NCBI RefSeq assembly: GCF_964204865.1
Contig: NC_135254.1
Location: 10,726,001-10,790,000 of the forward strand
Source: Styela clava
Taxonomy: Eukaryota
Direction of reading: 5' to 3'
Length of the DNA stretch: 64,000 nucleotides
Shown here: positions 27,343-63,011 of the stretch, one piece after another
Layout: each line of letters starts with the position of its first letter
Numbering within the stretch: the first letter of the stretch is position 1
Translations under genes and position numbers: made by a program
The notes under the pieces: model-generated
Told to the model about the DNA's origin: nothing
What the model saw: the letters and a program-made list of their open reading frames with translations, nothing else
Database searches by the model: none

Positions 27343-27409
27343 GTATTATTTCATTATTATGACTTTTTTTAGAAAATTTACTGAAAATAAGGTTACTCAT
27401 ACAGGTATA

Positions 27410-38125: not shown

Positions 38126-41100
38126 CTAATGGTTATCGGCAATGACGTAGAGGAAATCTTGCCCGTTTGATGAGTCGACTTGATCTTCGAATAAGAGAGA
38201 ATTATTGTCTGCCTGTCCATCAGGGTTTGCAAACGTCTGATAACGAAGAGTTTCCGTATTTTGAGAATTGTCTCGACCTGATTCCACATCTTCGGGATCT
38301 GTAGCAGTAAAACATGTTAGTGATATATATTAATATGAAGCAGCTGTTTTGACACACTTGAAGCATTTTCGTTTGGAGGAGTTGGAAAATAGGTCGGAGC
38401 CATTCAGATTAACTGACTACAGATTTGAATACGGACTCATACACGCTATTACCTACCCGAGTTACCTATATTAATATAATTACCAAAACTGAATGCATGA
38501 TAAAGTTCATTAGAAACAACAATTCTGAATTTTTACGTGGAAAGATTCTATTTAGTATCGGTTGGTATCGTTGCAACAGGATGTGATTTAAATGTAACAT
38601 CTTATCTTGTTTTACGCTTCTCTGTGTAGTATTCCTATATGCTATATATTCTCAATATATTTCCCACAAAATCACTTTTTTCCCATTAGGCATATAGTTC
38701 AAATAAGATAATCATATGGTGCACATAGAATTGAGTATTCCTTTTTGTTTGTCATACATTTACTAGCATGTGGTAGACAGAAAGTATAAGAATTCATCAA
38801 CCCAGATAGAATACGTTGACGTAATACTTTAAATGAAGCTACATTAACATACGATCTGACATTATATCTCTCGGATTAAGTTGAATTTCCATTTCTAACC
38901 TTTTATTGTAATTGCCGCGCTCTCCTGTGTTTATGATTCCGCGGCCTCTTCTGAAAGCAAAACTTCAGATTATATACATTCTCTGTGAAATGAGCGAACC
39001 CTTAAAAGAATATTTGATATTTGTTCACTATTCATAGGAGATGTAATGTCATAATGTTGGATATATCACCTCTTTTTGAGTTGCTTTAAAAGTATAAAAA
39101 CAACGATAAGCGCTAAAAGAAGAAATCCTCCGATAGTTCCCACGACTGGTCCAATGATTGATGTTTGTGCAGCGGGTGTAGATGGACGAAGAATACCAAT
39201 CGTCGAACTGTCAGGAATTTCTGTGTGAGATAATATAGAAATTGATATCAGTACAATATAAATGATCAGAAATCTAATTTAATACATTATGTTCATTTAG
39301 ACAAGCTAACACATTTTCGCGAGCTGAAATTGAATTTGAAATATTTTGCAACGCTCACATTTGAAAATTATTCGTACGAAAGTTATTTGACTGCTTCATC
39401 TTGATTGTATGTTAACATTTAAGCATTCTAATTGGTTTTTTCAATGATCGAATGTTGGCCACGTTCTCGCGTGCATATTAGTAAAGGACTCAATTCTACA
39501 AAAGGCGAAACTAACCTATAAACTTATGACTTGGTATGCTAAACGATTGCTAATGCCGTTATAATTATCCCACGTTCCGTTTGTTGGTATTATTTAAGTT
39601 TGGTTTCATTGCAGATTTTGCCAATATTAACTCTGATCAAATGTATATTGTTGCTTATTTGCAGCTAATAGTATGAGGTCAAGCCCGTAAAATTATAAAT
39701 CGCAGTTTTTTTGGCGCGATTCTCATTTTTAGAAAGTGACTTGAGTTAAAAGAAAGATATGAATGAAGTATTCCTAATTCTGCTACCGGAGAGTATAAAT
39801 TGATTTTGTCCTCAAAGTGAATTATGACTTCCATGTTTGCGTTTTGTGACATTACATTTATATTGTGACGACCCGTTTACATTTTTACTTAAATAGCGCG
39901 CCTCATATTAAACTCAAATACGCTAATATGTGAATAATATGTAAAAAAAATTTAGATTTTGTAATCTTCTCTGCTTTGAAATATATAATCTTTGTGAAAT
40001 TTACTCGACGTTTCGTCTTCAGTTGACGATTCAAAAGTAGCAATCTTTTGCGTCTTTGTTTGTTCCATAGTGGGTTTCATAGTGCTTTTATGTTCTGTCG
40101 TCGTTGCGGTTGTAACACTAATTGAAGTTGCGTGTTGATTGCTGCTAGATTCTGGATTGGTAGTGATTGTAGACTTATGATCAAAGCTCGTAGTGGCGAC
40201 AGTAGACGTGGAATCAGTTTTTGTGGGAGTGGAAAAAGATTGAGTAATTTTTCCTGTCGTTGTTTCCATTACCGTTGTTGCCGTAGACAAAATTGGCGAT
40301 GTCACTTCGAAATTACTTCCTTGGCTTGTTTCGCTCGTTGATTGTATCATTGTATTTGTAGGGATTGTGGTTTCCAATAAGCTACTTGTTATTCCACCGC
40401 TATCAGAAGATGTCATTTTATTTGCCATCGTCGTTCTACTCTCATTTGTCTGTGCGAGGGACATGGGGGATGGCCCTGTAATCGTCGTGCTTTCTGTATT
40501 AACAAAGTGGCTGTCCATCCCTGTGGTTGTCGTTGGTTCGGGGAGATGAATAGTTGACTGGGTTAAATTTATGCCCATTTCTTCAGGGCTGTTAATTTTA
40601 GTTTCAGATGTGAATTGGAAGGTCACTGTCGTCATTTGGTCTTGTTCAGTTTCTGCGAGTGAAGAAAATGTGCCTTGCAAGTTAGAGGTTGCATTTGTAA
40701 CAACATTATTTTTCTCTGTAGAACCGGTAGTTATTACGTCGGTGGTTAACTTACCAGTTGTAATTAATGAAAATGTTGTTTCCGCAACAGTAGTTGTGTA
40801 ACAAGTTGGGTCTTTTGTACAATTTGCAGTCTGTTAAAAATATTGAATCAAACTAAGGGAAAATTGAAATTGATCACTATTAATAATTCCCAAACATTAC
40901 TTTTAAATGGCAAAAGTTTCTGTATCATACCCGGAAAGCATTAATATTTTCAATATATATACACAGGATATGATATAGTATCACTCTGATTCTTCCACCG
41001 CCAAAACGATTTGATCATGCCGTGGAAATAAGTTCTACGATATATTATTTTGAGGTTCAAGATCATCTCTAACATGCTAAAGTAGATTATTCCGAATGGA

Positions 41101-41880
41101 GAATGCCATCACTTTATAACGTGATTACTCGAGAATGAAAAACTATCATTCAATATAGCTGTGTATAAATTTGACATTGAGTTCAAGCTACACTACAGTA
41201 AAAAATTGCAGATAAAATAAACAACCACGACGACAAGAAAATCATAAAATGTACACGTTAAATATTTAGCTACTTCATACCTCATTGCGACTGCCAGCGC
41301 ATGCATCGGGTCCTGTTCGCGGAGAATTAATGCATGTGCGATTTCTCAATTTGATTATGGTTGAGCAGTTACATTCACTCCAAGAAGACCAGGTTCCCCA
41401 GTATTTACCTATATTGGAACTGTTATTTTTTTATAAATGCAATCAGCTAGATAGTAATATATATAGATATACAAAGGGGGTTTTCAGCAAAGTTCTAACT
41501 TTCTAACAAACTTTTTTGCAAAATGTTCTCGAATCTTCATAAGATCCTGAACTACCACCTGTTGAAACATAGTATTCATAACTCCCATTAGGAAACCAAA
41601 TTCCTCGATCTGTTTCACAAAAGAAATATCAAATAATAGAATAACGAGAATATCGGTCGGAGACCGAAGACTTATCCGTTGAAAGTTAGGGGATCCCCCC
41701 AAACAGCGATCTTACTCCACAGTGACACTTTGTGTCCCGTCACTAAATATTTAATAACTTGCTAATTATACTACATAATTTGCCCAAAATCAATAGGCTT
41801 CTGGTCCGAGATATGATAAACGTACAAGCAAAATCTGAAGCAGATTTAATCTCGCTTTCGTTAGATATCGCGTGCATCTA

Positions 41881-41949
<69 letters not shown>

Positions 41950-42987
41950 TACCTATCAACATACTTACCGATTAAAATCGATAAGTAATGACAGTATCTC
42001 GAAAAATGCGCAGTGAAAATGCGTGAGCTAGTGAAAACATTTGAAAAATAATTAAAAAAAATACGTTGGCTTTGGGGTGACTTATATGGGAGCGAATAAC
42101 AGAGCCCATTGTTCATATCTTATCTCTTTTTCCCGACAATTACGATAAGTGTCGAGTTTGATGGAAAATGAAGACGTAACAATCTAATTTTAAAATGGGT
42201 TTTTCATTCTCACCTTGTGGATTCGGAGCTGTGGTCAATAACAACATAGTTGCATTGCAGGAAGCGGATGGCGTGCATATCTAAAATCAACGTTCAATTT
42301 GTTCAATCGTGAATGTAGGTGTTTTAACCAAACTAAATTTAAGTCAAAAATTTAATATTTAATGTAGAATGATCAAAAAATGATTTTTCTCTGGCAATAA
42401 AATCCGAAATAGTTGGGTCCGGACTGAAGCGTTCGCAAGTCACATTCAAAATTGGATTATGGAAAGATTTTGAGATGTTAATCAATCTGTTTGAATTAGT
42501 AACAAAATACGACTAAACTGACTTGAATAAATTTACCTGGGTGGCAATTCTAGGTGTAGGTATTAATGTCGTCGATGAATTTGGGGACAAAAATCTACAA
42601 AACGGTTGCTATATAACGTAATTGAGTCTCAACATGGATATGTATGGAAATTTTTATTTTATTTTATTGGGAAGTTAGGTTTCAAACGACACACTAATCG
42701 ACATGCTAGGACCCTATAAAATCCTAATTTAAAATGTAATAAATATCAATACAGCCAGGTAATAAGCAAGCATTTCGAGCGGAAACACAATCATAATGAG
42801 TTATATACAGTGGTGGAATTCAGCCGGTTCGCAACGGTTCTATGGAACCGTCTCACGGAATTTTATGAGATCAGCTAACCGGTTAGCATTACTGGTTACT
42901 GTCAATGTTCTGTTTGTACCAGAACCGGCTGAAAAATATGACTTTTGTGAAGGAACTGGCTGAAAAAAAATTTGAATTTCATCACTG

Positions 42988-43029
<42 letters not shown>

Positions 43030-44906
43030 AAACAATTTTACTTCCGACTGTGATGCCGTATCGTTGCAAGCGTATGGACCAATTCTTCCGCTGTCAACAC
43101 AAGTTCGGTTACGCTGCCTCATTCCCGGGCATTCACAACTTCCCCAAGACTCCCATGATCCCCAATTCCAGCCTGCAGAAACATGTAGATTGAAATAATA
43201 GTTATATATTTCACAACCGAGTATTTCGAAGCAGTATGATATCAGTAAATTTAAATCAAGATGAACTGTTGATACAATATGAGCGGTAGAAAAAATAGCA
43301 TAACTGTGCAAAGTATAAATAGCGATGAGATGACATTATGAAAACTTTAAAACATTATCAAAATCTTTCCTGCACTCATAGCTAATCAAAAAAAGTTTTG
43401 TACTAAATATTTTAGATGAAATTCAGCTGACAGGTTTTTGGCGGTTTTATCGAAAACTGAGAATTCTTCTGACAGTAATTTAATGATATTGCGCAACTGC
43501 TTTCTTTAATAAACTTAATTTATCCAGTTTAATTTAAAACATCGGTCCCGGTTAACCCAATTCGCAATTTTTGGTAGGAGAATTTACTCAAAGAAAAGTC
43601 AATCGCAATCACTCGAAAAATGTAAACTAGTGTCTGATTAAAATGCGGGCAGTCGCAGAGATGCCAAGTCCTACTGAAATCAAACGGTATTTTGATGGTG
43701 CAATAAGCAACAGCGAATACCTGATGATGTGATACTTTAAGGACTTTAAATCAATGCTATAATAAACTACGAGGCAGTAAACATGGCATGAATAAAATTT
43801 ACTAAATTGGAGTCAATGTCATTAAAATATATAAATATTTATTTGTATAAAGAAATAGGAAATGAGTGGCAAATTTAGTATACAATAATTACAAACGAAA
43901 TTTTTTACCGATTACTCGTTGACAGACAAATCCAGTTGGCGAATTAGCAGCGCAATTGACGTCATACCACGGTAGATTTAAAAAATAAGCGTTAAACCGC
44001 CCCATAGCAACACAAGGTTCAGGTTTATCACTAGACGGTTCTCCTGAGTTCCAGTTAGTGTAAGTTAGTTCCGAATTGTCATTCCATATGAAGGTATCGT
44101 TTGTGCCAACTTCCTTTAATCCAATATAAAATCCATAGGGTTGTCCTGTAGACAATAAAATGCTTTGTAGCAGAATTTGCTAAATTGAGCAGTAAAAAGC
44201 ATTAATGACGTGTGTGTTGCTACATTGATGAAATATTATCCTCCCTCCTCCTTCCTCCTGGTTCGACACATAAATTGATGCGGCATATGATAGGGGTCCG
44301 ACAAAACCACGATTCACAAATAGGGGTACGCGACTTAAAAAGTTTGGGAAACCCTGCTTCAGATTAATGTAAAGTTATGTAAGGTTGTATGTAAACATGG
44401 CTGGTTAGGACTGTTGTACATAATTGAAAACAGGTGCAAATATGTAATAAATGACGAATTAAAAATTCTCAAACAAACTTATTGAGAATTCTAACCCAAA
44501 TCACGAAACGCATGAACAAAGATAAAGACCATAATGTTAAATAACCATAAGCAATTTCATTTCGGGATTTGGGGTAAAACGTGAAACGTCCTGTTTACCT
44601 GAGGTACCTGAGACTTGATTCTGAATAAATGTTTGAATCTCGATCGTTTTTATCATTGCCATCTCACCATCATTGTTTTTACAGAATGTTTCACCATCAG
44701 CATATGGTTTTATATCATTTTCTCCAGATACGTAGTATTGGTAACTTCCAAATGCATTCCACTCACCTCTATCTTGTCGTAAAATAAAGAGTTTATGAAT
44801 AAGCACATAATTTGAAAGACGTGATATATAATATATACCAACCTGCGTTAACGACAGCAATCATCCAAGCAAATAATTCAGTGTATATCAAAAGTTTCTC
44901 ATTCAT
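38126..44906 (-). CDS. Receptor I2: SP-CTLD-TSP1-linker-TSP1-long mucin-TM with tail truncated before the ITIMs (~682 aa); decoy or pseudogene
   Basis: Exons 44906-44843, 44772-44599, 44145-43909, 43172-43042, 42280-42214, 41408-41281, 40830-40005, 39220-39070, 38950-38853, 38298-38126 (premature TAG). The model requires skipping a broken CTLD exon starting at 41609. Remnant tail sequence continues to 37813. Confidence 0.65.
41881..41947. repeat. (ACAG)n microsatellite inside an intronic insertion (~41658-41987)
   Basis: About 16 perfect units; the surrounding insert is absent from the paralogous intron near 12005. Confidence 0.95.
42808..42987. mobile_element. hAT-type MITE followed by a (TA)n microsatellite (42990-43026)
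   Basis: TIR cagtggtggaattca / tgaatttcatcactg; near-perfect 8-bp TSD gttatata/attatata. Confidence 0.8.
44171..44356. mobile_element. hAT-type MITE, same insertion as 24176-24371
   Basis: Same sequence and same intron position as in I1. Confidence 0.75.
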
Positions 44907-47324
44907 TTCCGCGGCTAAATATATAACATTTCTAACTTTCCCCATAACATTACAATTTGAATACGAAAATTGAAATAAAACAAGAATGGTGTGTATTTGC
45001 GAGCTGCGAACGCTTTCATCTTTCTCTTTAATAAAAAATGAGAATATTTGAATAAGTGTTTGGTTAGGTTTGAAAACTAACAACAAATTTGTCTATATAC
45101 CGTGACTTAACGCCCTGATTGTGAATGCAGCTTTGTTTAATTCAGCAGAGAATCCTGTGGAAAACTAACGTCATAAACTTTTCATGACAACATTAAAACA
45201 TCAAAAGCTATGACCTATTAGATAACACTACTAAATTTCTTCCAAAGCTAATAATACAACTTTATGCAATACTTATGAATGGGTGATTTGTTTGCCCACA
45301 ATAACATTGAATATAATTATTCGAAAATCTTCGATACTATTTTGAGTACACTGCGACTAATTATCAAATTTCTATCCACATTACTTTCAGTATCAGAAGA
45401 ATGATGCAGCTGAAACCTTAATTCGACTCGCCAGGATGAAATCATAAGCAATATGATATAACATTTGTTAGATCAGTCAGTTAGATCTGACAGTTCTTAT
45501 CTTACAATAACTAAGTCTAATATGAGTAATAAAGGTAATATTTTTATAAATGCAAAAATAAATAACATTTTTGTGGGGGACAGAATGAAACTTCCTATTA
45601 CGAGTGGGATGTTTCAATAACCTTTAAAGAAAAGATTAACGACGAATATGCTTCAGAAGACGAAACCTATTACAAAGCTACTTAGCAATGTTATAGCATT
45701 ATTCAGTCACTTATGTTCGTGTTATATATTGAGCAAAGCTTATTCATATAGAAACATCGTGGCATATTAAAAACTGATAACACGCAGATATCGTATTGTG
45801 GAAAATTAACAGGGTTGGCCTAATACTATTTATTGGAATTTCTACGCAACAATTAGTTAATATTCTGAAAATACCTGAATTATATTTTATTATACGAAAT
45901 GTTTCGAATATTGGCCAAATTGTTTTCATATGATATTCTTGATTCTGGTTTCACCAATCAAATCCATTTATTCGCCTATGTTGAAAATAATATTTTTTCA
46001 TCGTCTGTTCGTCTTTGTAGTATATGACTAGGAACTCACAAAATAAATAATATTTATTTCACTACTGACACATATAAACACTTGAATGAATGAATGAATG
46101 AATGAATGAATAGCTTGTTTGCTACATTGATTGGCTCATTAATTGCGCTTTGACTTCTACTGCAGTAGCCACGATAACCATTACTATGGCCTTCTTACTA
46201 AGGAAATGCATGTCGAGAAAACAACAACGAAGAATATGATTAATCTAAGCAGGACGAAGATGGAAATGACACGTACCACAACTATTAGAATAATACATGA
46301 ATATCATGACAACTTTATAAGCAAAGCCAAGTAAAGCGATGAATATTGTGGGCTATACTAGAGTTTTAACCAAATAGATGTATAGTAATCTCTTGTGACC
46401 GACTGCTGTGCTATCGTAAATAGCAGAAGGATTATTGAACCATTATTAAAGATACATTATTTGATATTTGTAGAAAAACTATTCATTCATAAAATATTAA
46501 ATTCATGAGTTCAAATCAATTGCGTTTTGTGGAACAAAAAAAAATATTCATAAAATTCCGAAATTTGTGTTGAAATAAATGAACGATTGTTGGTAAATGA
46601 GATGAATTCAGGTTTTAAGTTACAGAACAAAAAAAATTAAATTATATTTAACAACATGATTTCTCGAATATCATTTTTTTCCTAAGAGGTGTAATTAGAC
46701 ACTTTTATTTTCCATTGCAGAAATGAGTGTAACATTACGATGATGACTTGTGCAACAAACACTATTTTCTGAAAGTAGAAGTGTGAGCTACATATTTAGT
46801 GACGACTTGTGTTTATTTGGTATGTGTATGTGATTCGTTCAATCTATTCGAATTTGAGCCAGTTTTGGGGAAAGTTTAACGAAATTTGATTCCAAATTCA
46901 AGATTATATATCGTGAACTGTATTTTAGAGATACACTAAAATAACTGTTAACGTTCTGGCATTTGCGAAAATGATTCACTGGAATAATTAGTCATAAAAA
47001 CGAACCTTGGTGATCCTCTCGCATTTAATTGATCATAGTATAGTTAAATCTGTATTCAATTTGCATTTGTTCGTTTATCATTGCATCTTAGCCACCTGTG
47101 CTGTATATTTGGAAAATATGAGCATTTCGCACTGTGACTAAATATCCTCAAGTATTTATCAATTCTTTGAAACAAGTTTCTTTAAAATGTTTTGGTATTT
47201 TTATTATTCATTTTGTTTACAGAGCGTTTAACGTTTTTCAGAGCTAATCATTTTTACTGCTAGTTACATCCGCAAAGCATTACAATCTATATTTGAATTT
47301 TGTCAGTTTATATGATTCAGAAGA

Positions 47325-50300
47325 ATGAGAATCGAAACAATATTTTTGTTGGTTCTTCTTCAATACCCGAGGCATCTGAACGCAGCAGGTACTATTTCAT
47401 TGTTATGACTTTGTTTTAGAAAACTTACTGAAAACAAGGTTACTCATACAGGTATAAGGGAGATTGATCTGAACAAAGATTTTGAGTTGGTAAATACCGA
47501 TCGGCACTAAGCTTAAAAATTGTTCATATCAATACAATCAGTAAAAGATGTGTGAGGTATTGAATTCCATATACATGGAGTTTTTGGAATGAACTTAGGA
47601 ATTATAGATACACTAACAGTAAACCGATGAGAGCTCGCAGTCAGTTGTATTTAACGGCTGAAAACTTTTTAGGGGGACAATATTCACATTTTTGAACATT
47701 TGGTAAGCGGTAACAACGGTTACCTGACAATATGAAATGGTAAATTTTGTTTAGATAATATAGGATTACATTACGTTATGTCTCAAATATTAATTTATTT
47801 TGCCAGAATGTCGGGAAACGCCCATGGATCTTGTATTTATGCTGGATGGATCGGGTTCTATCACAAATGTGAATTGGGAGCTTATGAAGTCATGGGTCAA
47901 GTTGGTAGCAGAAAATTATGACTTAGGCGGATTAACACAGATTGGCGTCGTTCAGTTCTCACACTGGTTTTCAAATGAGAAGTAAGCTATAGAAAGAGAT
48001 TTCATTTTATTTAATTAGATTTTAAGTCGCATTTATAAATAATTTATTTAAATTATTTGAAAGCAGCTGCTCTATTAGTCAAGATCAAATTGCCTAGAAA
48101 CAGCTGCCATGACATGTATTTGGCTTAACTTTGTGGCGAAGAATGATTTCTTCTTAAGCGTCAAATGAGATCATCATGATCACCATAGTTGTCAAAATTA
48201 TGTCAACAGTGTTTTAGCTCTGTTGTGTATTTTAGTGCTTTATTAAAAACTAACAAGGAATTAGTTTTGATCGTTTTCCACTTTGTTCCACTTCGCTGCG
48301 AGTGTTTTTACGAATTTTATCTGGGTACAGTAAGACTAAGATACATTCTTCTAAAATCATTTTCCGCGTTTGTTTGTATTTTCAAATTCATTGTTATTCA
48401 ATAAAAAAAATTCGATAAAATAGTTTTCATTTTCTTTTCATAGCACACAGCCATATTTAAAAACTGAAATTCAGCTAGGAAAACTGAAGACCAAAGCCCA
48501 ATTGAAGGTAAAATATTCATCAAGGGTTGAGCAGTCGAGACTGGTACCGTCACGGTAAGATCAGACAGTTCTTGCTGATGAGGTATCGAACATGGCGGAA
48601 TAAAAAGTATTCCTCTCTAATTAAAATACAATAGTAAACTTTCGAGATAATCATTTGGTTCTATATTTTGAAAAAAAAAATTCCTTTCGTAACAACAAAA
48701 AAAACAAAACCCAAAATTTAGCATATTTTAGATTCACATGTACAATAAACGCAGTTGCAAAACAAAGCTAGTGAGATGGTGGGGTCACGTTCTACGCGAA
48801 AAAGAACTAAAGTCATATTTGTCGTATGAATTGTCTTATTTAACGATTTGTTCACAAAATTGTGATACCTTCAGAATTCAAAATGCAATTAGCTTTAAAT
48901 TAATAACTGAGTATTCATTAGGCCGCTGTTGACGAAATATCAATTCATGGGTTCACAACTTACACTGCACATGCTATCAACAAAACAGTGAACGAAGATT
49001 TCATGAGATCTGATCGTTTTTATGATGCTTCAGTGAAGAAAGTCATTATTTTATTTACAGATGGAAGGTAATCTTGTCTAAACAATGTCTGAATACACGC
49101 AAAATGCACCTTTGAATCGTATCGTTAACTGTAGTTAATGTTTTTGTTATTATTGTTAATGTTCACGGTTCATGTAATGGTAGTTAGCAGAGTTCTTTTG
49201 ATATATCCGTATATTTAGCCCCTTTGTTTTTCAACTTGGGTTTCTGCGCGATATATATTATTTTTACACCATCAAGATATTAGTTGTTGAAACTCTAAAT
49301 AAATTTTATTTCAAAGCTGATTACTACTTTATTATTTACCAAATTATTCTAATCTTAGACATCCAAAAATTAAGAAGTAGTATAAAACCGTTTTTGTTTT
49401 GCTCGATTTATTGAAGGTATGCTCGTGTAACAAGTCTTAAATAGGTGTGTAGATTGTAGATGGTTATAGATAATTTTTTATATCTTTTGAAGATCTACCG
49501 ACAGAAATGATTTGCTTTTGTCAGCAAAATATGCTCGGTCAAATGGGATTACTATATTTGCAGTTGGTGCTGGAGGTTATGTAATGGAGGAATTACAGGT
49601 AATCTGAAAAGTTGTAACAAATTGAAATAAGAGAATTTTTATGCATCAATATGGTATAGCTTTTCTATCTTTTGTCTAATCATTATATGTCTGTGTATTA
49701 AAGATTGTTAATCAACAAGACTGAGAAAGTATAACCAAATTAGTTATCAGGATAAAACTCTTTTTGACTGAGATTGATAAGTAACAATGTGGGCTACTGT
49801 AGTTGTTTAAATGTTCTTTCTATTTGGGCATCTGGAGTGAGACCAGCTTCTTTTCTGTTTCTTATATCTGGGATTGGCAAAAAATATTTCATTCAAATAA
49901 TATATTTTATTAAATAATTAGGCATGTTGCACGGAGAAATGACGTATCGCGGGAGCTCGAGCTGATATGCGACTGGCGACGTTCCATTTAATCGCCCAGG
50001 ATCTCCGCTGATACATTAGGCCCGTTCTCCAGAAAAACGTTAAGCCATGCATGCAAAATTGCAGATCAATAACGGCAGTGTATTGCGGAACTGCCAGTTT
50101 ATTTGGACGCTGCGCGGCTCTTCAACATCTCAGCTTGTGCGATTTTCTGTGGCTAATTGTCAAAACATGTTCACTTGAATTCCTAACTTTCAAAGTTTCC
50201 CCAGTTGTGGAATATCGAAGTTAGTTTACGAGAAAATCACCTGGAGCAACATCCAACAAATCGATACATCCATACGTTTGATATCAGAGCATTTTGTTTC

Positions 50301-52393
50301 CTTATTGCAAACGATTGCGGGAGTGCTACCATAATACACTGCATTTGATGAACGATCGTTTGCAATGAATTTTCTTTTTACTTATTATATGGAATATTTA
50401 CTAGTGACGCTCTGATTCGAGTCTTTTGCCACCATTCACGTTTTGCCTGTGCTTGAACTTATTTGAATAAACAGAGCTAGGATTGTGGGCATGGACGTGC
50501 CAAACTTTACTGCTGTCCAGAATGAGGTTATGATAATGATGTCCTCCAACTTCAAAAATAATTCGGGGGATAAACAAGTTAAAGCTGTTGCTATACATGA
50601 GAATGAATAAATTAAAGGTCACGTATGAGGGGAATGTTTGTAAAATTGTGATATATCACTTAATGACCAGACGAGCAAAACGGCGGTCATCCATTGCTGA
50701 TTCATCACAATCAGTTTCACAAATCTATACACGTCATGTCATCTTTTACTTGAATAAAACACATAGAGAAAAATGTGTGATATCGTGAACTCTACAGCTT
50801 GGATTTGCTGCCCGCTCATCCGCTGGCCCGCCTCAGAGTGAGGATGAAATTCACTTAGTCTAAGTTGAATTAAATGTTTCAAGCATGGTCTCTACTGGCA
50901 CAATAAACCACTTCTCAAATATCTCAATACCTGTATCTTAAAAAAACAGAATCGAGCTATGTTCATCTATAGATCATAGTTGAATTATACTCGATGAAAC
51001 TTGAACTCGACCTCGGCAAAAACAACTTTGTGTTGGCATGTAATAAGACTCCGGCATCCCTTTTAATTTAGCATTCACTGGTATCATTGTCTTCATTACG
51101 ATTTTAATATTCATAGTTGTAGCAAATTTTATTTATGTCTTTGTGTTCACGTTTAACGACATAGTTGAATTGGGATCATATGAGTAGGAAGTATCAAATA
51201 AAACGATAACAAAAATATTTTTTTAGTAACGAACAAGACCTAACCTTGTATAGCTTTGCTACATCGGATGTTTAAACCGAAAAATATTAAAAAGTTACCA
51301 CGATAAGTTGTGATTGAAAAAGCAGATTGGGACAGTCGTAAAATGCAACAAGTTTAACCTAACTGACGGATAAATTTCATATACTTTTATTTACAGATTA
51401 TTGCAAATGGCCAGATCAATAACAATGAACGAGTGATTACAGTTTCAAATTTTACTAGGCTGAATACTACAGTAGATATTTTAAAGCAAGGTATATGCGC
51501 TATCCAAGGTAATGTTGATATTAATAGTCAGTATTTATTGAAGCTGCTACGATATGTTAGTAGCATGTAATTTCGAACTACGTTTTCAAAATATTACTAT
51601 ACCTATAATAATTAAATGTTCCCCATCTCGACGTCATAAGCCGAAATGATATTCGATTTTTTTTTTGTTAGAATCAGTGGATTATAAGATGAGATGCTTT
51701 TTGCAGGCTACCACAACACAATCAACGATTGAAATTTATTTTCTCGTTTTCGAAAAGCATTTCGTTCAATGCGCATAGCTAATAATAACTCATTTCCTAC
51801 AGATTTTATAGCATATAATATAGAAATTTACATTCATCAAAAGGTATAACAGCTAAAATGTACAAACTAAAGAGGGAATTATATAAGATTCAAAAAAATA
51901 TTTATATTTGTTTATAGTTCCCTTCATAGTGTCTCGCTACACTTGCACAACCTCATCGCTAGAAGTTCAATGGAAAACAACTACATTTAAGTCGGTCTTC
52001 TCATACAGACTTCAAATTCAGGTTAAATTTATAAATACAATAAAAGTCATTTTATTGGTTTAAACACTTTCACTGTGCGTTATAACATGTAATTTTATGC
52101 TAAATATCACATTTATGTATTTAACTTATAAGGATCTCAAGACCAAAGAAATCAAGGAGACAAGCGTTCAATTACTCATGAAAAAGGAACCAACAATAAA
52201 AATTCACGAAGAAAACACATCTTCGGAGTTTGCTTGCGTCACTACGACAAATTTGTATATTTCAAGCAACTACGAAATCGTTGTTGAGCAAATATCGGCA
52301 AAAACAAACAATCAAATAAAAACCATATCCAAAGTTCTTCACAATGCAAATGGGAAGACTATTATGCGGTTAACGTTTCTTGACTTTGTCTAG
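47325..52393 (+). CDS. Secreted-type VWA (von Willebrand A, MIDAS) + FN3-like protein, ~343 aa; C-terminus uncertain
   Basis: Exons 47325-47388 (SP), 47807-47981 (DLVFMLDGSGSI...IGVVQFS), 48444-48507, 48922-49067 (TYTAHAI...KVIILFTDG), 49493-49598 (GITIFAVG), 51397-51508, 51918-52021 (TTSSLEVQW...YRLQI), 52133-52393 (L...NYEIVV). GT-AG, phases compatible, 1032 nt. Confidence 0.85.
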
Positions 52394-54366
52394 CTTATAT
52401 TCGGGATGTCAGACTTTTCAAAAGAAGATATTTTTTACACATACCAACTTAAAACACATGTAAATCTATATATGTGTGCGTATATTTTTCATTCAGTTCA
52501 AATAAACATATTAGGACAATCCATCTATTATATGCTGATATAGCCACCACCACATTCAGAGTATAATAAACTGGGTTAGGAATGCGGAACCGGAAATATT
52601 CTGGTCCACCAAGTTCTGTTCTTTATGCATTATTTACTACTTCCATGGTTTCTTATTTGGGGTGAAATGGTGAAGAACATTTCATAAAAATAATGCCAAC
52701 TGATTACAGCTCCAAAGTTGATTGGAATCCTGATTCAAAATGATAATACATTCAATTATTCAGGCTCTACTTGGGCATTTGATACTGGCAAGGAAAGCTA
52801 ACACTGCTTGACAACCCAATCAAACTCAGTTCAGGTGAATTAAACTGAATATTCTCTTCTTCATTCAGATTCCAGTTTTGTCAAATAAATTATCACCATG
52901 TAATGTAAATAGATTGAAATCATGTTTTTGAATTTATAAGGAAAATTTATAGAATTTTGTAATATTATTCGAGGACGCTTTCGAGGTCAATTTGCTTTGA
53001 TTCATTTTAATGAAATATTTACTATGCACACATTTTACACTTATATTAGTAAATCAAAAAAAAAATGAATGTAATAAATTTTGATCGTATTTAGTGATAA
53101 TATTTACTGCCTTGGAGAAATTACCATTATTTAAATGTTTAGTACAAGATTATATTATTTAGTTTATACTACTGTCGAATAACTTATTCTCGAACGTAAA
53201 GGCAGTCAGCTAACTAAAGAAAATCATTCGAGCACTATGTTTTTACGTTGTTACGTATGGTTGTTCTCTTTTGGTACGAGACTAAATCATTTAGTTTATA
53301 CTTTGCCGAATAACTTATTGCCCAAAGTAAGGGCAGTCAGCTAACTAAAGAAAATCATTCGAACATGTATGTTTTTACGTGGTGACGTATGTTTTACGTC
53401 ACAACTCACAGATACCGCAATCAATGTTATGCTACGGTTCACATCATGAGAAAGCGTTTACCAAGATTTTATATGTGATACTTGTTTAATTTGGAAAGAT
53501 CTAGTCTAGGTCATAATTGAACAAATACATTCAATTCGAATTATTAATTTAAGATTATATCGTTACAAACCTTATTTATATATAATCTGTTTGACTTATA
53601 TTCATAGTTTTGTACAAGACAAAAACAATAATGGACCATACAAGTATGTTCTGAATTTGGTTATATTTTAAAGTTTCTATAACGAACACTTGAACGAGTG
53701 TGAACTCATCACTTAGTCCTATAGCATTATAAAATAAGACGATTCCACCAAGCTTCAAATTATTGAATACCAATTATTGTAAGAAAAATGTCAGTGGCAC
53801 CTACAAACAAAAAAGAAACACACTTAAAAAAATATGTTACTAATTTAGAAGGAAACAGGATGGATGCTATCAGGGTAAAGCTTTCAACAAAATATGACTT
53901 GAAATTAACAATATTTGTTGAAAACACTTCAGAGTTAGACAATAGTGCTTGTGTACTTGCTTTCATTTATGGTAGGAAATAGAAAACCAAGGAATATCAC
54001 AATACATCCATAATACAATACATCAACTTCATTTATATTACGGGATTCTTAAAAAAGTGGCAAATGTATTGCAAAGAAACCATTACCAGCCTAGATCATG
54101 TTATGCCAGTTATACGAATCCAGATCCACAGTTGCCTTTATAATGAAAGATCCAAATTTTACATCTCCGATATGCAATGTTATTTTTGTTTCAATGAGTA
54201 TCAGCTAATACAAGCGCAGAAGTTCAAGAACAAGTAGTAATGGTTAAAATTACAATGCTTGTATGCGTTTCAGAATGTATAACAAGATTCACGACTAAAC
54301 AGGAGTGGCAATGGATGATTGCTATTTAAAATCAACATGTCAAGAATCATATTCATTTTTAGGCAT

Positions 54367-57300
54367 TTAATTGATGTACGGATGTTCTTTTGTTGTGCTA
54401 TTATTCATTTCTTCGTATTGATGATCTCCGTCTTTTATTTTCTCATAATTATGCGGGATTTCATAATTTTCTTCTTTCTCTTCTCTTAACTCATAATTTC
54501 CGGAGTTCAGTTGTGATGTTTGAATTTCATCAAAGTTTTCATAATAACTCGGGACGTCATTAACAACCCTATTCATCTCTGAAAGACGTTGTGGTTGAGT
54601 TGCGATTTTTTGAGAATTCCTTCAGTAAACAAAAAATAAGTTAGAATTAATTAATAAGTAGGATTTTAAATAAGAAACATTGGATTTGTTTTCGGAATTG
54701 CTTCTACCATAGAGGAGTTAGACAAAACAATCGACGAAAATGTTAGAGCCCAGTATTGCAGACATTGTCCCAGACATTGAGATTGCGCATACAGCTGTAT
54801 AAAGAGACACACCTTACTGATTCAATTAAGAGTGAATACTCCAAATTTTCGGAAAATATACACATTTTGTTGTAGTATCGAACATTTCTCACCTCATTTT
54901 TTTGTTTCTACAAATCAGCGAACCAATTCCAAATAGAATGATTGCAAGAATCAATGTGACTATGGATGAAATAATTGCAACCAATAAATTGTCGTGGCCT
55001 GCAATATATTTCAACATATAGTAAGAAGAAGCATAAACGTTAAAAAAATTATCAGCATTGAACACAGGTTAAACATGAGAATCAGAAAGTCAGTGAGCAT
55101 TTTATGTAACCACAAAATAGTAGTTTTAAAAACTCTGATTTTGTGCACTTAAGACTAATGTCTCTTATAATTTGTAAGCTATATAATCTTACCACAAGAA
55201 GTCGTTGTAGTAGTAGTGATTGCACTAGAGGGAAAGAAAATGTTTATCTTCGTAGATTCTGTGTTATTTGCATTGGCAGACAATGTGGAAGTATGTGTCA
55301 TGTCATTGAGAGTTGTAAATTTATGATAAATATTTGTTGTTGTCATTTCAGCAGGCGCCGCGGTGGACGTTGTACTACAGGCAGTGTCTCTTGAACAATT
55401 GGTCGTCTGAAGAAAGTAATTGTGTTTAGCAATTTTTCGATACAATATATGTACGATAATATTTGTATATTCCAACATTTATTTAAATCCGAAGTTTAAT
55501 GGTTGGACGTTCTTCAAAAAGTTAAACAAATTTAAAAATGCTCACAAAAATATTAATTCACACGCTTATGAAAAATAACGTCGGGCGCCCTGAATAAGAA
55601 CTACTAGATATTCACTTTTACGACTGCGGCTTATACGCTGTGAAATAGTAAAAACTATTCACACAACATAGAATGATGATCCTTTTTTTTTGAACCTTTT
55701 AGAAAATCAGAAATTATTAACTTACTACAAATAATGGCATTTTTTTTATTATTTCTTACCTCAAAATTAGAACCAATGCAAATATTGGGCCCCGTTCTTC
55801 CCGAGTCAATGCATGTTCGATTACGTACTTTCATCATTGAGCTGCAGTTACATGTACTCAACGATGACCAGGTTTCCCAGTATCTTCCTGCACAGTGTAA
55901 AGATTTAAAACAAAAGTTTTTTTGCCTGTTTTGATTAGAATGGCTGTATTTTTGTACGTAGTAAATAGGTTTAAACTTAAATAGGAAAAATTGCCAATTG
56001 CTTCTTATTCGCAATAAACCCTTCGAAACTCTACAAATATCGATGACTTGCCCATACACGCCTTCTCAAGCTGTAGTGCAATACGTCCGCAAACATGGTC
56101 GGCGGAGAAAGACGCAAACGATAAGCCATTAAGTGAACCACTCCGTGTCGACGAGAAGTCCAACACTCTTGCACATTGTCACATCCCTCATGAGATTCGA
56201 ACCAGGGGCGACTATACCATTGGGCAAGGTAGGCTAAAGCCTTGAAGCCTCTAACCTCGTAGGCCTTAACAATCAATTTTAAGCTCATATTCACTGTAAA
56301 TCCTTTTTGAATTGTGAAGCCTTCAGAGTTCCAGAATAATGTCACTTTAAAACTTTATATTTTTATTATTCACGGTAATAATTCCAAATATTTACCGATT
56401 GAAAGATTAAAAAATTTGAAATATGGCCGAATAAATGATTTTGTAATAATACATCAACTTGAAATCCCTATTATGTTATATCCCATGGTTTAAATTTGTC
56501 CCAGATTCGAACCTGCATTCCAGCCGATCTAAGTATATTCTCCATTATTGTATTAATGCACTTGTTTTGTCGAATTTACAAGCGGTGACCGGGCTCCTGA
56601 TGCAAATGTCTTTAGATTGTAGTAGGCCCGTGAGAGATGTTACATGATTTTTCTTTTTTTTTACTCAAAGCGTCTCCCTGATAACTCAGATAAACATTCC
56701 TGTTAAAATCTTACGACTTTAGTGTTGGTACTAAGTTGGCGATATAGTTGCACAATGACAGTGAAACTTGAAGCAAACATTATAATAATCATTTATGCAC
56801 TAATATTTAATCAAGAGTAGTTAGTTTTGAACGGAATATTTATGATAGAATTCATAGTCGCACTCACTAGGAATAAAAAAAAATCGTATCTGATTAAAAT
56901 ACGGGCGGTCGCTGAAATGCCAAGTGCCACTGAAATCATACCGTATTTTGTTGGCGCAAAGAGCAACAGCGAATACCTGTTGATGCGATACTTGAAGTTA
57001 TTTAAATTAATGTTATAAAGTTTAAGTAAAATAACGATCAGTAAACATTGGTATGATTTAAATGAACTAAATTAAAGTCAATGGCATTAAAATACATAAA
57101 TAGTTATTTGTATAAAGAAAAAATGACATAATCTACAAATTAAGTAGACTTATTACATTAAAAGTTTGTTACCGATTAATCGTTGACATACAAATTCAGT
57201 TGGTGCATTCGCAGCGCAATCGACGTCATACCACGGTACATTTGCAAAATACGCGTTAAACCACCCCATAGCACCACAAGATTGGGTACTCTCACTAGAA

Positions 57301-57993
57301 GGTTCTCCTGAGTTCCAGTTAGTGTAGGTTAGTTCTGAATTGTCATTCCATATGAAGGTATTACTTGTGCCAACTTCCTTCAATCCAATATAAAATCCAT
57401 AGGGTTGTCCTGTGCACAATAAAATGCCTTATCTTAGGGTAACGTTTTGTCGTGTGTAATATTTATCCAATATGAACATGGCTGATTGGGGCTGTTGAAC
57501 ATAATTGGAAACATGTGCGAACACTTGAATACTGATGAATTAAGAATTCATAAACCAATGTATGGAGATTTCTCGCGCAAATCCCAAAACCCATGAGCAA
57601 AAGATTCTAATGACCATGATGATAAATAACCTTAAGTAAATTCATTCAGGGATTTGAAATAAAAAGTGAAATGTCCTATTTACCTGAGGTAGCTGAGACT
57701 TGATTCTGAATAAACGTTTGAATCTCGCTCGTTTTAATCATTGCCATCTCACCATCATTGTTTTTACAGAATGTTTCACCATCGGCATATGGTTTTATAT
57801 CATCTTTTCCGGATACGTAATATTGGTAACTTCCAAATGCATTCCACTCACCTCTACCTGGTTCGCAAAAATAAAAAGTTTATGAATAAGCAAATAATTT
57901 GAAAGACATGATATATAGTATATACCAACCTGCGTTAACGACAGCAATCATCCAAGGAAATAATCCAATGTATATAAAAAGTTTCTCCTTCAT
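54367..57993 (-). CDS. Receptor A2: SP-CTLD-TSP1-mucin-TM-activating-type tail, ~391 aa
   Basis: Exons 57993-57930, 57857-57684, 57409-57173, 55887-55760, 55406-55193, 54998-54893 (TM), 54619-54367. The ancestral last acceptor is mutated (cag>ctg); an in-frame aag 3 nt downstream is assumed. The tail is 9 aa shorter than in A1. Confidence 0.75.
56035..56245 (-). mobile_element. tRNA-derived SINE-like element (copy of 10655-10865)
   Basis: Reverse-complement match including the B-box GGTTCGAATC. Confidence 0.6.
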
Positions 57994-60359
57994 TTACGCG
58001 GCTAATTATCTATCATTTCTAACTTTCCCCATAACATTACAATTTGAATACAAAAATTGAAATAAAACAAGAATGGTGTGTATTTGCGAGCTGAGAACGT
58101 TTCCATCTTCTTCATCACAAAATTGAGGATACTCAAAATAGTGTTTGATTAGGTTTAAAAACTAACAACAAATTTGTCTATATACCGTGACTCAACGTCC
58201 TGACTGTAAAGGCAGCTATGTTTTCATGCAGCAGAGAACCCTGTGGAAAACTAACTAAATAAACTATCCATGACAACATTAAAACATCAAAAGCTATGAC
58301 CGATTAGATAACTCTACTAAATTTCTTCCAAAGCTAATAATACAATACACGCAAAACTTATGAATGAATGATTTGATTGCCCATAAGTACATTGAATCTA
58401 ATTATTCGAGAATTTTCATTATTATTATCAGTACACTGCGACTAATTATCAAATTTCTAGCCACATTACTTTCAGTATCAGAAGAATGATGCAGCTGAAA
58501 CCCTAATTCGACTCGCCAGGATGAAATCGTAAGCAATATGATCTAACATTTGTAAGATCAGTCAGTTCTTATCTTACAATGCCTAAGCCTAATATGAGTA
58601 ATAAAGGTAATATTTTTATAAATGTAAAAATAAATAAAGATTTTGTGGGGGACAGAATGAAACTTTCTATTACGAGTGGGATATTTCCATAACCTTTTAG
58701 TTACAACGTTTTTGAAATGACTGCAAAGAGAAGATTAAAGATGAATATGCTCCAAAAGACGATACCTATTACAAAGCTAATTAGCAATGTTATCATATTA
58801 TTCAGTCACTTATGTTGATGTTATTTTCGAGCGAACCTTATTCATACAGAAACATAGCGGTATTCTGAAAACTGACAACACTCAGATATAGGTATGTGAA
58901 AAATTATAACAGGGTTGACCTAATACTATTTATTGGAATTTCTAGCGCAAATAAGATGGTTATTATATTGAAAATACATATCTGAATCAGATTTTAATAT
59001 ACGAATTGTTTTCATATGAAATTCTTGATTCTGGTTTCGCCAATCAAATCGATTTATGCGTTTTGGTTTCTACTGCAGAAGCCATACGATAACCATTACT
59101 ATGGCCTTCTTACTACGGAAATGCATGTCGAAAAAAACAACAACGGAAAATGAAGCAGAACGAAGATGGAAATGACACGTACCACAACTATTAGAATAAT
59201 ACATGAATATCATGACAACTTTATAAGCAAAGCCAAGTAAAGCGATGAATATCGTGGACTATACTAGAGTTTTAATCTAATAAAAGTTTAGTAATCTCTT
59301 GTGACCGACTGCTGTGCTATCGTGAATGTCAAAAAAATTATTTAACCATTATTAAAAAAACACTATTTGATATATGTAAAAAAACTATTCATTCATAAAA
59401 TAATAAATCCATGAGTTCAAATCATTTGCGTTTTGTGGAACAAAAAAAAATAATCATAAAATTCCGAAATTTGTGTTGAAATAAATGAACGATTGTTGGT
59501 AAATGAGATGAATTCAGGTTTTAAGTTACACAAAAAAAAATTAAATTATATGTAACAACATGATTTCTCGAATATCATTTTTTTCCTAAGGGGTGTAATT
59601 AGACACTTTTATTTTCCATTGCAGAAATGAGAGTAACATTACTATGATGACTTGTGCAACAAACACTATTTTCTGAGAGTAGAAGTGTGAGCTACATATT
59701 TAGTGACGACTTGTGTTTATTTTGTATGTGTGTGTGATTCGTTCAATCTATTCGATTTTGAGCCAGTTTTGGGGAAGTTTAACGAAATTTGATTCAAAAA
59801 TTACGATTATATATTGTAAACTGTATTTTAGAGATACACTAAGATAACTGTTTACGTACTGACGTTTGCGCAAATGATTCACTGGAATAATTAGTCATAA
59901 AAAATGAACCTTGGTGATCCCCTCGCATATAATTGATCACAGTATAGTTAAATCTGTATTCAAGTTGCATTTGTTTGCATTTTTGTTTATCAGTGCATAT
60001 TATAGCCACCTGTGCTGTATATTTAAAAATATGAAAATTTCGCATTGTGACTAAATATCTCAAACCGAAATTAGTATAGCGATACCAAACAGTGATATGT
60101 AAATGGGGCATTGGAGTATGTATCAAGCGCACGTATTTAACTTATTAGACATATTTTCAATTTCAATAAAATATGAATGAATAATATACTAGTGGCAGAA
60201 GTAACTGAATGCCAAGGATTTATCAATTCTTTGGAACAAGTTTTTTTTTAATGTTTTGGCATTTTCATTATCATTCTGTTTAACATATTTTTCAGAGCAA
60301 TCATCCGCAAAGCATTACAATCTATATTTGAATTTTGTCAGCTTATAGGATTTAGAAGA

Positions 60360-63011
60360 ATGAGAATTGAATCAATATTTTTGTTTATTCTCCTTCAATA
60401 CCCGAGGCATCTGAACGCAGCAGGTATTATTTTATTGTTATGACTTTTTCAGGAAATTTGCTAGAAACAAAGTCATTCATTCAAGGAAAAGGGAGCTTGA
60501 TCACTGATCAATGTTAGTGCAACCACGAAACGCCATCAAGAAATTTTGAGACGTTAAGAGATTGAAGCATAGAATTGAGCGTTGGTTAATACCGATGGGC
60601 ATGAGGCGTAAAACTAACTGAATTTAACGGCTGAAAACTTTTAGAGGGACAATATTCAAAGATTCAAAAGAAAATTTTAAAAGCGGTAACAACGGTTGTC
60701 TGACAATGTGAATGAGTTTAGAAAATATAGGATTACATTACATCTCAAATATTAATTTATTTTGCCAGCATGTCGTGAAACGCCCATGGATCTTGTATTT
60801 GTGCTGGATGGATCGGGTTCCATCAGAGATGAGAATTGGGAGCTTATTAAGTCATGGGTCAAGTTGGTAGCAGAAAATTATGACTTAGGCGGATTAACAC
60901 AGATTGGCATCGTTCAGTTCTCACACTGGTTTCCAAATGAAAGGTAAGCTTAGAAAGATATAATCATTCAACAAATCAACGTCAATAAAGTAAGATTTTC
61001 ATTTTATTCATTTTGTAAGCCGAATTTATAATTTTTCTTTAAATTATTCAAAGCAACTGCTCAATCAATTAAAATTAATTTACCTATAAACAGCTGCCAT
61101 GCCATGAATGATTTTTTTCAAGCGTCAGACCATGAATGTAGCTTCAAAAATTTTCTGACTTAAGTAATGAGCTGTGTTAAATATTGTAAAATTTTTGGAC
61201 ATGTTAGTGGACATAACGATCGTTTCGTTATTATGTTATTGTTGTTCTTGTTGTTCTTTGTCATAGAAAAAAAAATCGTTTTTCTCTTTGATCACTGGAC
61301 CAATCGCTTTGAAATTTAAGTGCCTAATTTTTTGCTAGAAGGCTATTACTTTGATTTATTTTAAATATTCAAGTGAGCTGTATAAAATTCGTTATTTTGT
61401 GTGCTATGACGTCATCAAAGTTTGCTACCATGTGGCGCTACGTTTCCATATATTGAGCATAGCTCTCTTGTTTTAATTACCCAAAAAGTGTTAATTTTAA
61501 ACTTTGCCATTTTGTTGTTCCACTTCGCTTCGTGTTTTCACTGCTTTTATTTGAGTACAGTCAGCATACATTCTTCCAAAATCATTTTCGGCTTTTCTTT
61601 GGGTTTTCGAATCCATTGTCATTCAAACACAAAATATGATAAAATGATTTTCATTTTTTTTAACAGCGCACAGCCATATTTAAAAACTGAAATACAGCTC
61701 GGAAAACTGAAGTCTGAAGCCCAATTCAAGGTAAAATATTCATCGAGCGTTGAATACCGCTGAGAGGGGCAGCGTCACGGTACGATCAGACGAGAGTGCT
61801 TGCTGATAATGTCTCAAGCATGGTAGAATAAAAAGTATTTTTCTATAGATAAAATACAATGGTGAAATTTCGAGTTAGTTATTAGGCGACATGGGTGTCA
61901 AAAAAAAATTGAAAAAAACAGCAATATCATTCGTAAAATCAAAAATACTAAAAACCAAAATTCAGACGGACTTCTTTTTTTTTTTTTTTTTTTTTTTTTT
62001 ATATATTCATTAATAAATAAAACACAATTGATCGGTACATCTACAACAATCACTAATCATGAACAATACACAATTCATCATATAAAATAATCAGTAAATG
62101 TATCATAAAATTTTCCATTTTTGATCAGACGGACTTCGTGTGTACACGAAATGTAGTTTCCCAACAATGCTATTGAGCTAGTGTGAGTCACCTTCTATGC
62201 AGAATAGAATTTAAAGGAAAATTTGTCGTATGATTTATCTTATTAAAAAGATTTGTTCACAAATGTGTGATATTTAAATATATCAAAATGCAATTAGCTT
62301 CAAAATAATAACTTGAACTGAGTATTCCTTAGGCCGCTGTTGACGAAATATCAATTCATGGATTCACAACTTACACTGCACATGCTATCAACAAAACAGT
62401 GAATGAAGATTTCATGAGATCTGATCGTTTTTATGATGCTTCAGTGAAGAAAGTCATTATTTTATTTACAGATGGAAGGTAATATCTTGTGGGAACAATG
62501 TCTGAATACACGTAAAATGCACCTTTGAATCGTATCGTTAACTGTTGTTAATGTTTTTGTTATTATTGTTAATGTTCACGGTTCATGTAATGGTAGTTAG
62601 CAGAGTTCTTTTGATATATCCGTATATTTAGCCCCTTTGTTTTTCAACTTGGGTTTCTGCGCGATATATATTATTTTTATACCATCAAGATATTAGTTGT
62701 TGAAAATCTAAATAAATGTTATTTCAAAGCTGATTACTACTTTATTATTTACCAAATTATTCTAATCTTAGACATCCAAAAATTAAGAAGTAGTATAAAA
62801 CCGTTTTTGTTTTGCTCGATTTATTGAAGGTATGCTCGTGTAACAAGTCTTAAATATGTATGTAGATTGTAGATGGTTATAGATAATTTTTTAAATCTTT
62901 TGAAGATCTACCGACAGAAATGATTTGCTTTCGTCAGCAAAATATGCTCGGTCAAATGGGATTACTATATTTGCAGTTGGTGCTGGAGGTTATGTAATGG
63001 AGGAATTACAG
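60360..63011 (+). CDS. VWA-domain gene paralog, exons 1-5; continues past the window
   Basis: Exons 60360-60423, 60769-60943, 61667-61730, 62333-62478, 62906-63011, all intact and collinear with the 47325 copy. Confidence 0.85.
61975..62124 (-). mobile_element. Short 5'-truncated retroposed insertion with poly(A) tail
   Basis: T26 run at 61975-62000 and a perfect 13-bp TSD tcagacggacttc (61962-61974, 62125-62137). Confidence 0.85.

Follow-up and report, generated by a model that had tools for sequence, protein, structure and literature searches.

Why does a gene for an apparently secreted von Willebrand factor A (VWA) protein stand head-to-head, again and again, with lectin receptor genes of the ascidian Styela clava? 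The question is raised by a stretch of 64,000 nucleotides (G000:C5:10726001-10790000, here called the window, whose encoded proteins are named Styela clava by their source), in which an earlier note had described three divergent pairs of VWA-FN3 (fibronectin type III) genes and receptors carrying C-type lectin domains (CTLDs) and thrombospondin type 1 (TSP1) repeats. It had proposed that the VWA gene encodes a co-regulated partner (ligand, opsonin or co-receptor) which duplicates with the receptor, like linked receptor-ligand pairs such as NKR-P1/Clr, and had named passive co-duplication as the alternative. This alternative proved the better fit to the evidence. We reason that the VWA gene would be a passenger, in that one ancestral head-to-head junction was amplified by unequal crossing-over and the gene passively co-duplicated with the receptors, an explanation to which we give rather more credence than doubt; matched pairs as in NKR-P1/Clr were not supported, since the VWA copies are near-invariant, lost or broken independently of the partner, and reshuffled among the receptors.

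Head-to-head pairs along the receptor array

The window was extended by 400 kb of flanking DNA, and all exon types were mapped by blastn across the resulting 464 kb. The paired geometry continues far outside the window, in an array of 342 kb (C5:10510683-10852317) with 24 receptor starts, of which 23 are minus-strand and one is inverted at the right edge, and with 16 starts of the VWA-FN3-like gene, all on the plus strand. Genome-wide, the close VWA copies number 14, all of them on the plus strand of C5:10.52-10.83 Mb, and exon 2 of the next paralogue shows 51% identity. Every one of the 16 VWA starts faces a receptor start, at a distance of 1588-2620 bases, the faced receptors being seven with a B-type and nine with an A-type tail (a third type, C, is described below with the family); the VWA gene does duplicate with the receptor. 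Eight of the 24 receptor starts have no facing VWA gene, and five of these eight have open models from which no exon was skipped. At their other end, the VWA genes converge on A-type tails in 13 of the 14 copies that reach exon 8, including those ending at window positions 47 and 52393, for which this convergence had already been seen.

Within the window, the start codons of the three reported pairs lie at 24925(-)/27279(+), 44906(-)/47325(+) and 57993(-)/60360(+), separated by 2354, 2419 and 2367 bases, respectively. The description of three pairs stands for the positions; at 27279 only the signal-peptide exon is left, so that the window contains two VWA genes and one relic, and hence two real pairs and one relic pair. 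It holds five receptor starts, two of which (14535 and 30400) have no VWA gene facing them.

The gaps between starts are homologous over their full length, and their VWA-side half diverges by only 5.5-7.8% among copies. In the 44906/47325 pair, the gap consists of a receptor-side upstream module of ~1 kb (44907..45890, no strand assigned), which is kept also by receptors without a VWA partner, and a VWA-side 5' module (46100..47324, plus strand), which is 92-94% identical in 14 copies and contains a GT-AG intron (46331-46720). Receptors that lack a facing VWA gene share the first kilobase or less of this upstream DNA before it enters the tail or the C-type relic of the next gene; one of them (10526948) retains scraps of the VWA-side module, a sign, by sequence, of secondary VWA loss. 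The gap is likewise retained by the VWA relics reduced to exon 1. A tree of the first 900 upstream bases (21 of 24 rows, the three divergent ones being excluded) intermingles VWA-facing A-tail and B-tail genes in two 100/100 clades, and a single clade of all A-tail genes is rejected (approximately unbiased (AU) test, p-AU 2e-11).

A null model of independent placement, which gives P 4e-6 for 16 of 16 starts facing a receptor, was discarded as invalid because the copies share one origin; since all the pairs likely descend from one junction, the 16 amount to a single event. At the right edge of the array, a B gene and a C gene lie beyond the last VWA gene on its own strand, and for this reason the head-to-head junction may itself stem from an inverted duplication around the VWA gene.

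The VWA-FN3-like gene and its receptor neighbours

The intact copy at 47325..52393 (plus strand) has eight exons (47325-47388, 47807-47981, 48444-48507, 48922-49067, 49493-49598, 51397-51508, 51918-52021 and 52133-52393) with canonical splice sites and an open frame of 343 codons, which encodes a signal-like N-terminus, a VWA domain and an FN3-like domain; the layout recurs in a protein of 343 aa (P0013) from an older assembly. The VWA domain is recognised by Pfam (E 5e-33), and in the AlphaFold2 model this part exceeds a predicted local distance difference test score (pLDDT) of 90, with a fold that matches the integrin I and collagen VI A domains (E 1e-15). The residues of the metal ion-dependent adhesion site (MIDAS; D35, S37, S39, T114 and D148) are unchanged in all eight intact copies; that the domain retains them had already been noticed in the window. 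Of the name VWA-FN3, the second half is better given as FN3-like: Pfam fn3 scores 19.5-21.6 bits against a cut-off of 25, the top Atlas matches are to fn3 at 0.85-0.89 (TM score 0.48-0.57), and our own models reach a pLDDT of ~30-45 in this part (41 with an 11-row alignment). The signal peptide is putative, being judged by eye and from the exon pattern, and no segment of the protein exceeds a hydrophobicity of 1.31 in a 19-residue window. By analogy with integrin I domains, the product is likely a secreted MIDAS protein with a job of its own, such as matrix binding or opsonin-type tagging. Two VWA sequence classes can be told apart, which diverge directly after the DxSxS motif (ITNV vs IRDE).

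Besides the eight intact copies, the 16 VWA starts comprise two exon-1 relics, two copies with a single early stop, and four with frameshifts, splice defects or truncations. The copy at 27279 has no further VWA exon downstream, where a foldback element and then a receptor-relic intron follow. The partner receptors of the 16 starts were scored as open in 12 cases (for three B genes on the strength of the RefSeq model or of a short mucin donor that was inferred) and as damaged in four, and the states of partner and VWA gene are combined as open/intact in seven pairs, open/broken in five, damaged/intact in one and damaged/broken in three (Fisher p 0.57; as elsewhere here, losses and pairings were counted in one haplotype).

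The intact VWA proteins are 95% identical to each other, in contrast to 83% for their partner CTLDs, for which dN/dS is 0.58 (0.38-0.89). The distances of the VWA gene and the partner CTLD are uncorrelated (Mantel rho 0.14, p 0.22, n=14), whereas those of VWA exons 1-2 correlate with the adjoining gap (0.41, p 0.002) and those of exons 7-8 with the sequence that follows (0.33, p 0.0005). Shared splits point the same way, as CTLD and near gap have 5 of 11 in common, the two gap halves three, and CTLD and VWA one (p 0.17); in AU tests, the CTLD, gap and VWA data reject one another's trees. Read from these alignments, shared history falls off with distance, as linkage alone predicts.

Transcript evidence was drawn from contigs of four runs and three studies (runs presumed to be RNA), in which only exon-to-exon joints were relied on; matching at 90% likeness pools paralogues, and splicing is thus supported for the family, without level or cell type. 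The VWA exons are joined at GT-AG for at least six of the seven introns (among 15 joints listed of 47), the receptor exons at CT-AC, and both families are spliced in the same runs. Contig cover is low in the gap between starts, where one contig joins 46330 to 46721 across the upstream GT-AG intron; both splice sites of this intron, donor and acceptor, are retained by 14 of 14 copies. In a second contig, a concatemer with a depth of 6, GGTTGTATTAAG is joined to an acceptor 64 bases before the ATG of the 60360-type copies. The 464-kb region does not contain this 12-mer, of which the genome has 1406 occurrences (97 for its control), and in locus L041 it is followed by GT; such counts and context make GGTTGTATTAAG a likely spliced leader, in which case the true start of the VWA transcript would be hidden. 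Position 60296 is likely the trans-splice acceptor of the 60360 gene, and the VWA transcript likely begins nearer to the receptor than the distance between start codons implies.

L041 is a candidate leader RNA gene, and L042-L044 resemble leader copies without the donor; no published Styela spliced leader sequence was found in the literature searched. A loose end of 24 bases before 47257, leader-like in length, was rejected as it does not match the 12-mer, and is presumably a library adaptor.

Explanations for the repeated junction

The passenger reading draws on the confinement of all pairs to one 342-kb array in one orientation, on the homologous gaps and reshuffled partners, and on the breakage of half of the VWA copies and the absence of VWA genes opposite a third of the receptors. 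The ancestral repeat unit would have consisted of an A receptor, a C relic and a B receptor, the last facing the VWA gene. As A and B genes are similar at their 5' ends, crossovers there would then have produced, at least three times, 13-kb units in which an A tail stands behind a B-type, VWA-facing start. The tail-to-tail convergence of VWA genes with A tails follows as a by-product of the tandem repetition of the unit. Selection would have two separate targets: the receptors, as a family of activating and inhibitory pairs whose lectin domains vary, and the VWA product, as a secreted protein that binds by way of its MIDAS and for which a few intact copies may suffice.

Several observations pull the other way. 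Among the intact copies, the VWA gene has a dN/dS of 0.31 (bootstrap 0.21-0.49) at a dS of 0.07, by which it is under purifying selection and not junk; its exons are better conserved than its introns, the MIDAS is invariant and the introns are spliced in contigs of three studies. A VWA start still stands opposite two thirds of the receptor starts. The intactness test has low power (n 16) and trends towards coupling (odds ratio 4.2), and the trees would be just as incongruent if the partner were common and invariant. According to one contig, transcription of the plus strand is under way at 46243 or before; the receptor 5' end lies near 44941, ~1.3 kb away, and a spliced transcript so close makes shared regulation possible. 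Lastly, the outgroup receptor at C5:10.48 Mb (CTLD, TSP1, transmembrane segment, tyrosine-rich tail; C5:10481290-10491926, plus strand) faces, ~3.2 kb away, a VWA-containing gene resembling complement factor B (two LDLa, four Sushi, a weak VWA and a trypsin domain; C5:10466890-10478112, minus strand). This arrangement is possibly due to chance, and we offer no other explanation; the factor B-like VWA was dropped as a source of the array VWA, which had no tblastn match to it.

In a rival reading, all the receptors would share one near-invariant partner, the VWA-FN3-like protein, which as a soluble co-ligand, opsonin or marker of self binds its target through the MIDAS and is read by both the inhibitory and the activating receptors, with linkage matching dose and expression. 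We hold this to be unlikely, if worth serious attention. It would account for the purifying selection, the full MIDAS and the splicing of both families in the same runs, and there are precedents for its parts: C-type lectin folds bind VWA domains in snake venom proteins (according to the available part of PMC6468738; PDB 1v7p and 6nd8 are among the structures matched), a related FN3-like module ends CTLD-EGF genes on C2, and head-to-head immune pairs occur in another ascidian (available part of PMC12582321). Yet a secreted protein, once made, has no need of linkage in cis; the VWA gene is broken in 8 of 16 copies and absent opposite 8 of 24 receptors; no comparable link was found at the outgroup paralogues in the DNA fetched; and the peak of receptor variability at the EPS/EPH/QPS loop and the next strand would, given known CTLD anatomy, point to variable outside ligands. 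A more elaborate design, in which variable paired lectin receptors work with one invariant secreted, integrin-I-like MIDAS adaptor that shares their control region and marks self or opsonised surfaces for both classes of receptor to read, appears quite unlikely to us. It is evolutionary evidence, exclusively, that bears on the choice between a passenger and a shared invariant partner, and the co-evolution tests argue more firmly against matched pairs than against a common one.

If the link were regulatory only, the gap would serve as a shared promoter or enhancer that favours or co-expresses VWA-facing starts, and the proteins would have no contact. The small divergence of the VWA-side half suits this, as do the retention of the gap by exon-1-only relics and the conserved intron and likely spliced leader (one contig each), which place the true VWA start upstream. 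We find it improbable all the same, as receptors without a VWA gene hold only the first kilobase and yet the annotation of the same assembly includes several of them, which are open, the gap halves have different trees, and start, strand and level are not given by the contigs. It would take more still for each VWA copy to be the cognate ligand or co-receptor of the receptor that it faces, as in NKR-P1/Clr or in FF/FcoR of Botryllus: tight, repeated head-to-head linkage and the two classes after DxSxS would fit such pairs, but there is neither tree congruence nor distance correlation, a near-invariant VWA stands against variable CTLDs, the two genes decay independently, and one VWA exon sequence recurs unchanged opposite receptors of either tail, A and B (10570748 and 10773325), all of which renders the idea very improbable. 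That the repeats are largely an assembly artefact, with alleles placed in tandem, is scarcely credible; one 8.3-kb block, and only one, is 99.7% identical to its neighbour, while the other long blocks are 97-98% identical, the copies differ in exon make-up and lesions, and proteins from the older assembly include several of the same gene types.

The receptor family, its surroundings and related systems

All the receptors begin with common signal and CTLD exons and continue with one to four CTLDs, TSP1 repeats, a mucin stalk and a transmembrane segment; several of our models are letter-identical to RefSeq proteins. A canonical ITIM (immunoreceptor tyrosine-based inhibitory motif, [ILV]xYxx[ILV]) is present in six of eight B tails (the remaining two are truncated) and in one of 15 A tails, and YxxI-x6-YxxM in 14 of 15 A tails and none of the eight B tails, while none of the 23 tails carries a strict activating motif (ITAM) or hemITAM. 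Apart from the ITAM pattern, the motif definitions come from section 13 of PMC12582321. Variability of the first CTLDs is greatest around the EPS/EPH/QPS loop and the following strand. For the inverted B gene (C5:10837518), present in two assemblies under one LOC number (P0019 vs P0022), the CTLDs are identical at 105/137 and 114/141 positions (77-81%), and the membrane and tail part at 316/323 (~2% different); between assemblies, the VWA is 98.6% and CTLD1 77% identical at one locus. This divergence suggests strong allelic variation in the recognition domains. To judge by their motifs, the receptors resemble paired families with activating and inhibitory members, here with lectin domains that vary, and these ~24 lectin-TSP1 receptors with ITIM or ITAM-like tails are a candidate polymorphic recognition system of a solitary ascidian.

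From left to right, the window opens with the 3' end of an intact VWA-FN3-like gene (1..47, plus strand), which starts outside at G000:C5:10721036. The A-type receptor at 4289..14535 (minus strand; signal, three CTLDs, three TSP1, mucin, transmembrane segment and YxxI-x6-YxxM tail) is open over 819 aa and has no facing VWA gene. Its tail exon is duplicated behind the gene (2190-2472 and 4289-4571), and the two versions differ in one tyrosine context (HIYEEI vs HNYEEI), which could permit alternative tails. A C-type receptor relic with a CTLD piece and tail exon (15975..16682, minus strand), of which a fuller gene is found at C5:10848760-10852310, precedes the B-type receptor at 20574..24925 (minus strand; signal, CTLD, TSP1, short mucin, transmembrane segment and an ITIM tail with VVYETV and VTYATV; 556-aa model, shortened at the tail end). 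The VWA relic (27279..27342, plus strand) is followed by the foldback element, a long inverted repeat with long AT-rich arms (27408..29017, ends approximate, no strand), at the junction where the remaining VWA gene is gone. Next come a receptor relic limited to the signal and first CTLD, with a stop codon in exon 2 and no facing VWA gene (29584..30400, minus strand), and a second C-type relic (31815..33772, minus strand). In the B-type receptor at 37813..44906 (minus strand; signal, CTLD, two TSP1, long mucin and transmembrane segment), an early tail stop at 38126 leaves no ITIM. To the right of the 47325 gene, the receptor at 54367..57993 (minus strand; 391 aa; signal, CTLD, TSP1, mucin, transmembrane segment and YEKI-x6-YEEM tail) combines an A tail with VWA-facing upstream DNA and is likely a chimera on sequence grounds. 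Its partner, with ATG at 60360, has exons 1-5 in the window (60296..63011, plus strand) and continues to C5:10791508 with an open frame of 343 aa.

Elsewhere in the array, the receptor at C5:10619666-10635076 has 1456 aa and four CTLDs from an internal triplication, and equals RefSeq P0015. Receptor type C (CTLD, mucin, transmembrane segment and a 448-aa tyrosine-rich tail exon) is apparently whole only in the inverted unit (C5:10848760-10852310), relics alone being left inside the array. The left border is marked by exons at C5:10505206-10508024 that presumably resemble an aromatic amino acid decarboxylase, and just to the right of the cluster (C5:10857000-10873200) lies a separate tandem array of ~290-aa open exons with tyrosine-rich stretches and with neighbours that are presumably kelch-like.

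Closest to the array VWA, at 55% identity, is a protein with two VWA domains that Styela encodes on the same contig, followed by ascidian integrin-alpha-like domains (47-49%); in HMMER searches, other ascidian VWA domains are 40-49% identical, with matches confined to the VWA part. Tandem families of CTLD-EGF genes on C2 (11.51-11.62 and 12.40-12.56 Mb) and of EGF-WxxW genes at C3:18.63-18.65 Mb likewise close with the FN3-like module (30-39% identity), and for this reason the VWA gene seems to have been put together from modules in common use. Searched against proteins, receptor pieces and the last VWA exon (FN3-like) matched only Styela clava, which is weak evidence, as these searches were word-limited or clustered. 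No VWA-type exon was found by tblastn in the fetched DNA of the distant receptor paralogues (two genes on C18, C5:10.48 Mb and the C gene), and no CTLD lies within 20 kb of the closest VWA paralogue. Two long open frames at L057:2565-8020, on the upstream side of the receptor paralogues on C18, presumably belong to a retrotransposon-like element.

In organisation, the Styela receptors resemble paired clusters such as KIR, Ly49 and LILR. Similar ectodomains on inhibitory or activating-type tails, a tandem array, tail swapping by recombination and variation concentrated in the recognition domain characterise these clusters (in part after PMC12582321), and the Styela array has ITIM tails in one subset, tandem copies, swapping between ectodomains and tails, and a variable recognition domain. 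It differs by its CTLD-TSP1-mucin type I layout, by the interleaved secreted gene, and by an activating-type tail with built-in YxxI-x6-YxxM that is not a strict ITAM.

The FF/FcoR genes of Botryllus schlosseri, as presented in the accessible sections of PMC12582321, likewise form head-to-head pairs in tandem clusters of an ascidian, with birth, death and intergenic recombination, and with ITIM or other tyrosine motifs in one partner and none in the other. In that system both partners are diverse membrane proteins of the immunoglobulin (Ig) superfamily, with matched polymorphism, gained and lost as pairs. In Styela, one partner is a secreted VWA-FN3-like protein, near-invariant, reshuffled and lost alone: Pfam gives Lectin_C, TSP_1, VWA and a weak fn3, diversity is unmatched (VWA 95% vs CTLD 83% identity among paralogues), and with 8 of 24 receptors unpaired, 8 of 16 VWA copies broken and incongruent trees, duplication and loss do not proceed by cognate pairs. 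NKR-P1/Clr (NKRP1/CLEC2) share with the Styela pairs a lectin-fold receptor with a tyrosine motif that is tightly linked to a motif-less gene a few kb away (available part of PMC3819593), and the 1588-2620 bases measured at all 16 VWA starts are tight linkage too. Both of those partners are type II membrane proteins with a single CTLD and pair-specific binding, and two human pairs stand tail-to-tail (same source), unlike the Styela receptors, which are type I, with one to four CTLDs, TSP1 and mucin, and whose partner is not a lectin. As a whole, the Styela pairs belong with neither FF/FcoR nor NKRP1/CLEC2.

For the VWA protein itself, WARP/VWA1 offers a secreted VWA followed by FN3, with two FN3 repeats in a single-copy matrix gene (available part of PMC7509151), unlike the one weakly supported FN3-like domain of Styela, where 343 aa fits one only. 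Integrin alpha I domains share the full MIDAS, at the identity to ascidian integrin-alpha-like VWA given above. The available passages of a tunicate immunity review (PMC5465252) contain none on ITIM or VWA terms, and a published account of this Styela cluster was not found in the literature searched, most subscription papers lying outside its coverage.

If the VWA gene is indeed a passenger, its repeated pairing with the receptors goes back to a single accident, multiplied by copying, and cautions against treating tandem copies as independent evidence of partnership. A VWA protein that binds the receptors would instead represent a new layout of innate recognition in the sister group of vertebrates, and the shared MIDAS-adaptor design, if true, would be distinct from both NKR-P1/Clr and FF/FcoR. 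The receptor array is of interest in its own right, as a candidate for polymorphic recognition that is unrelated to the Ig-type receptors of Botryllus.

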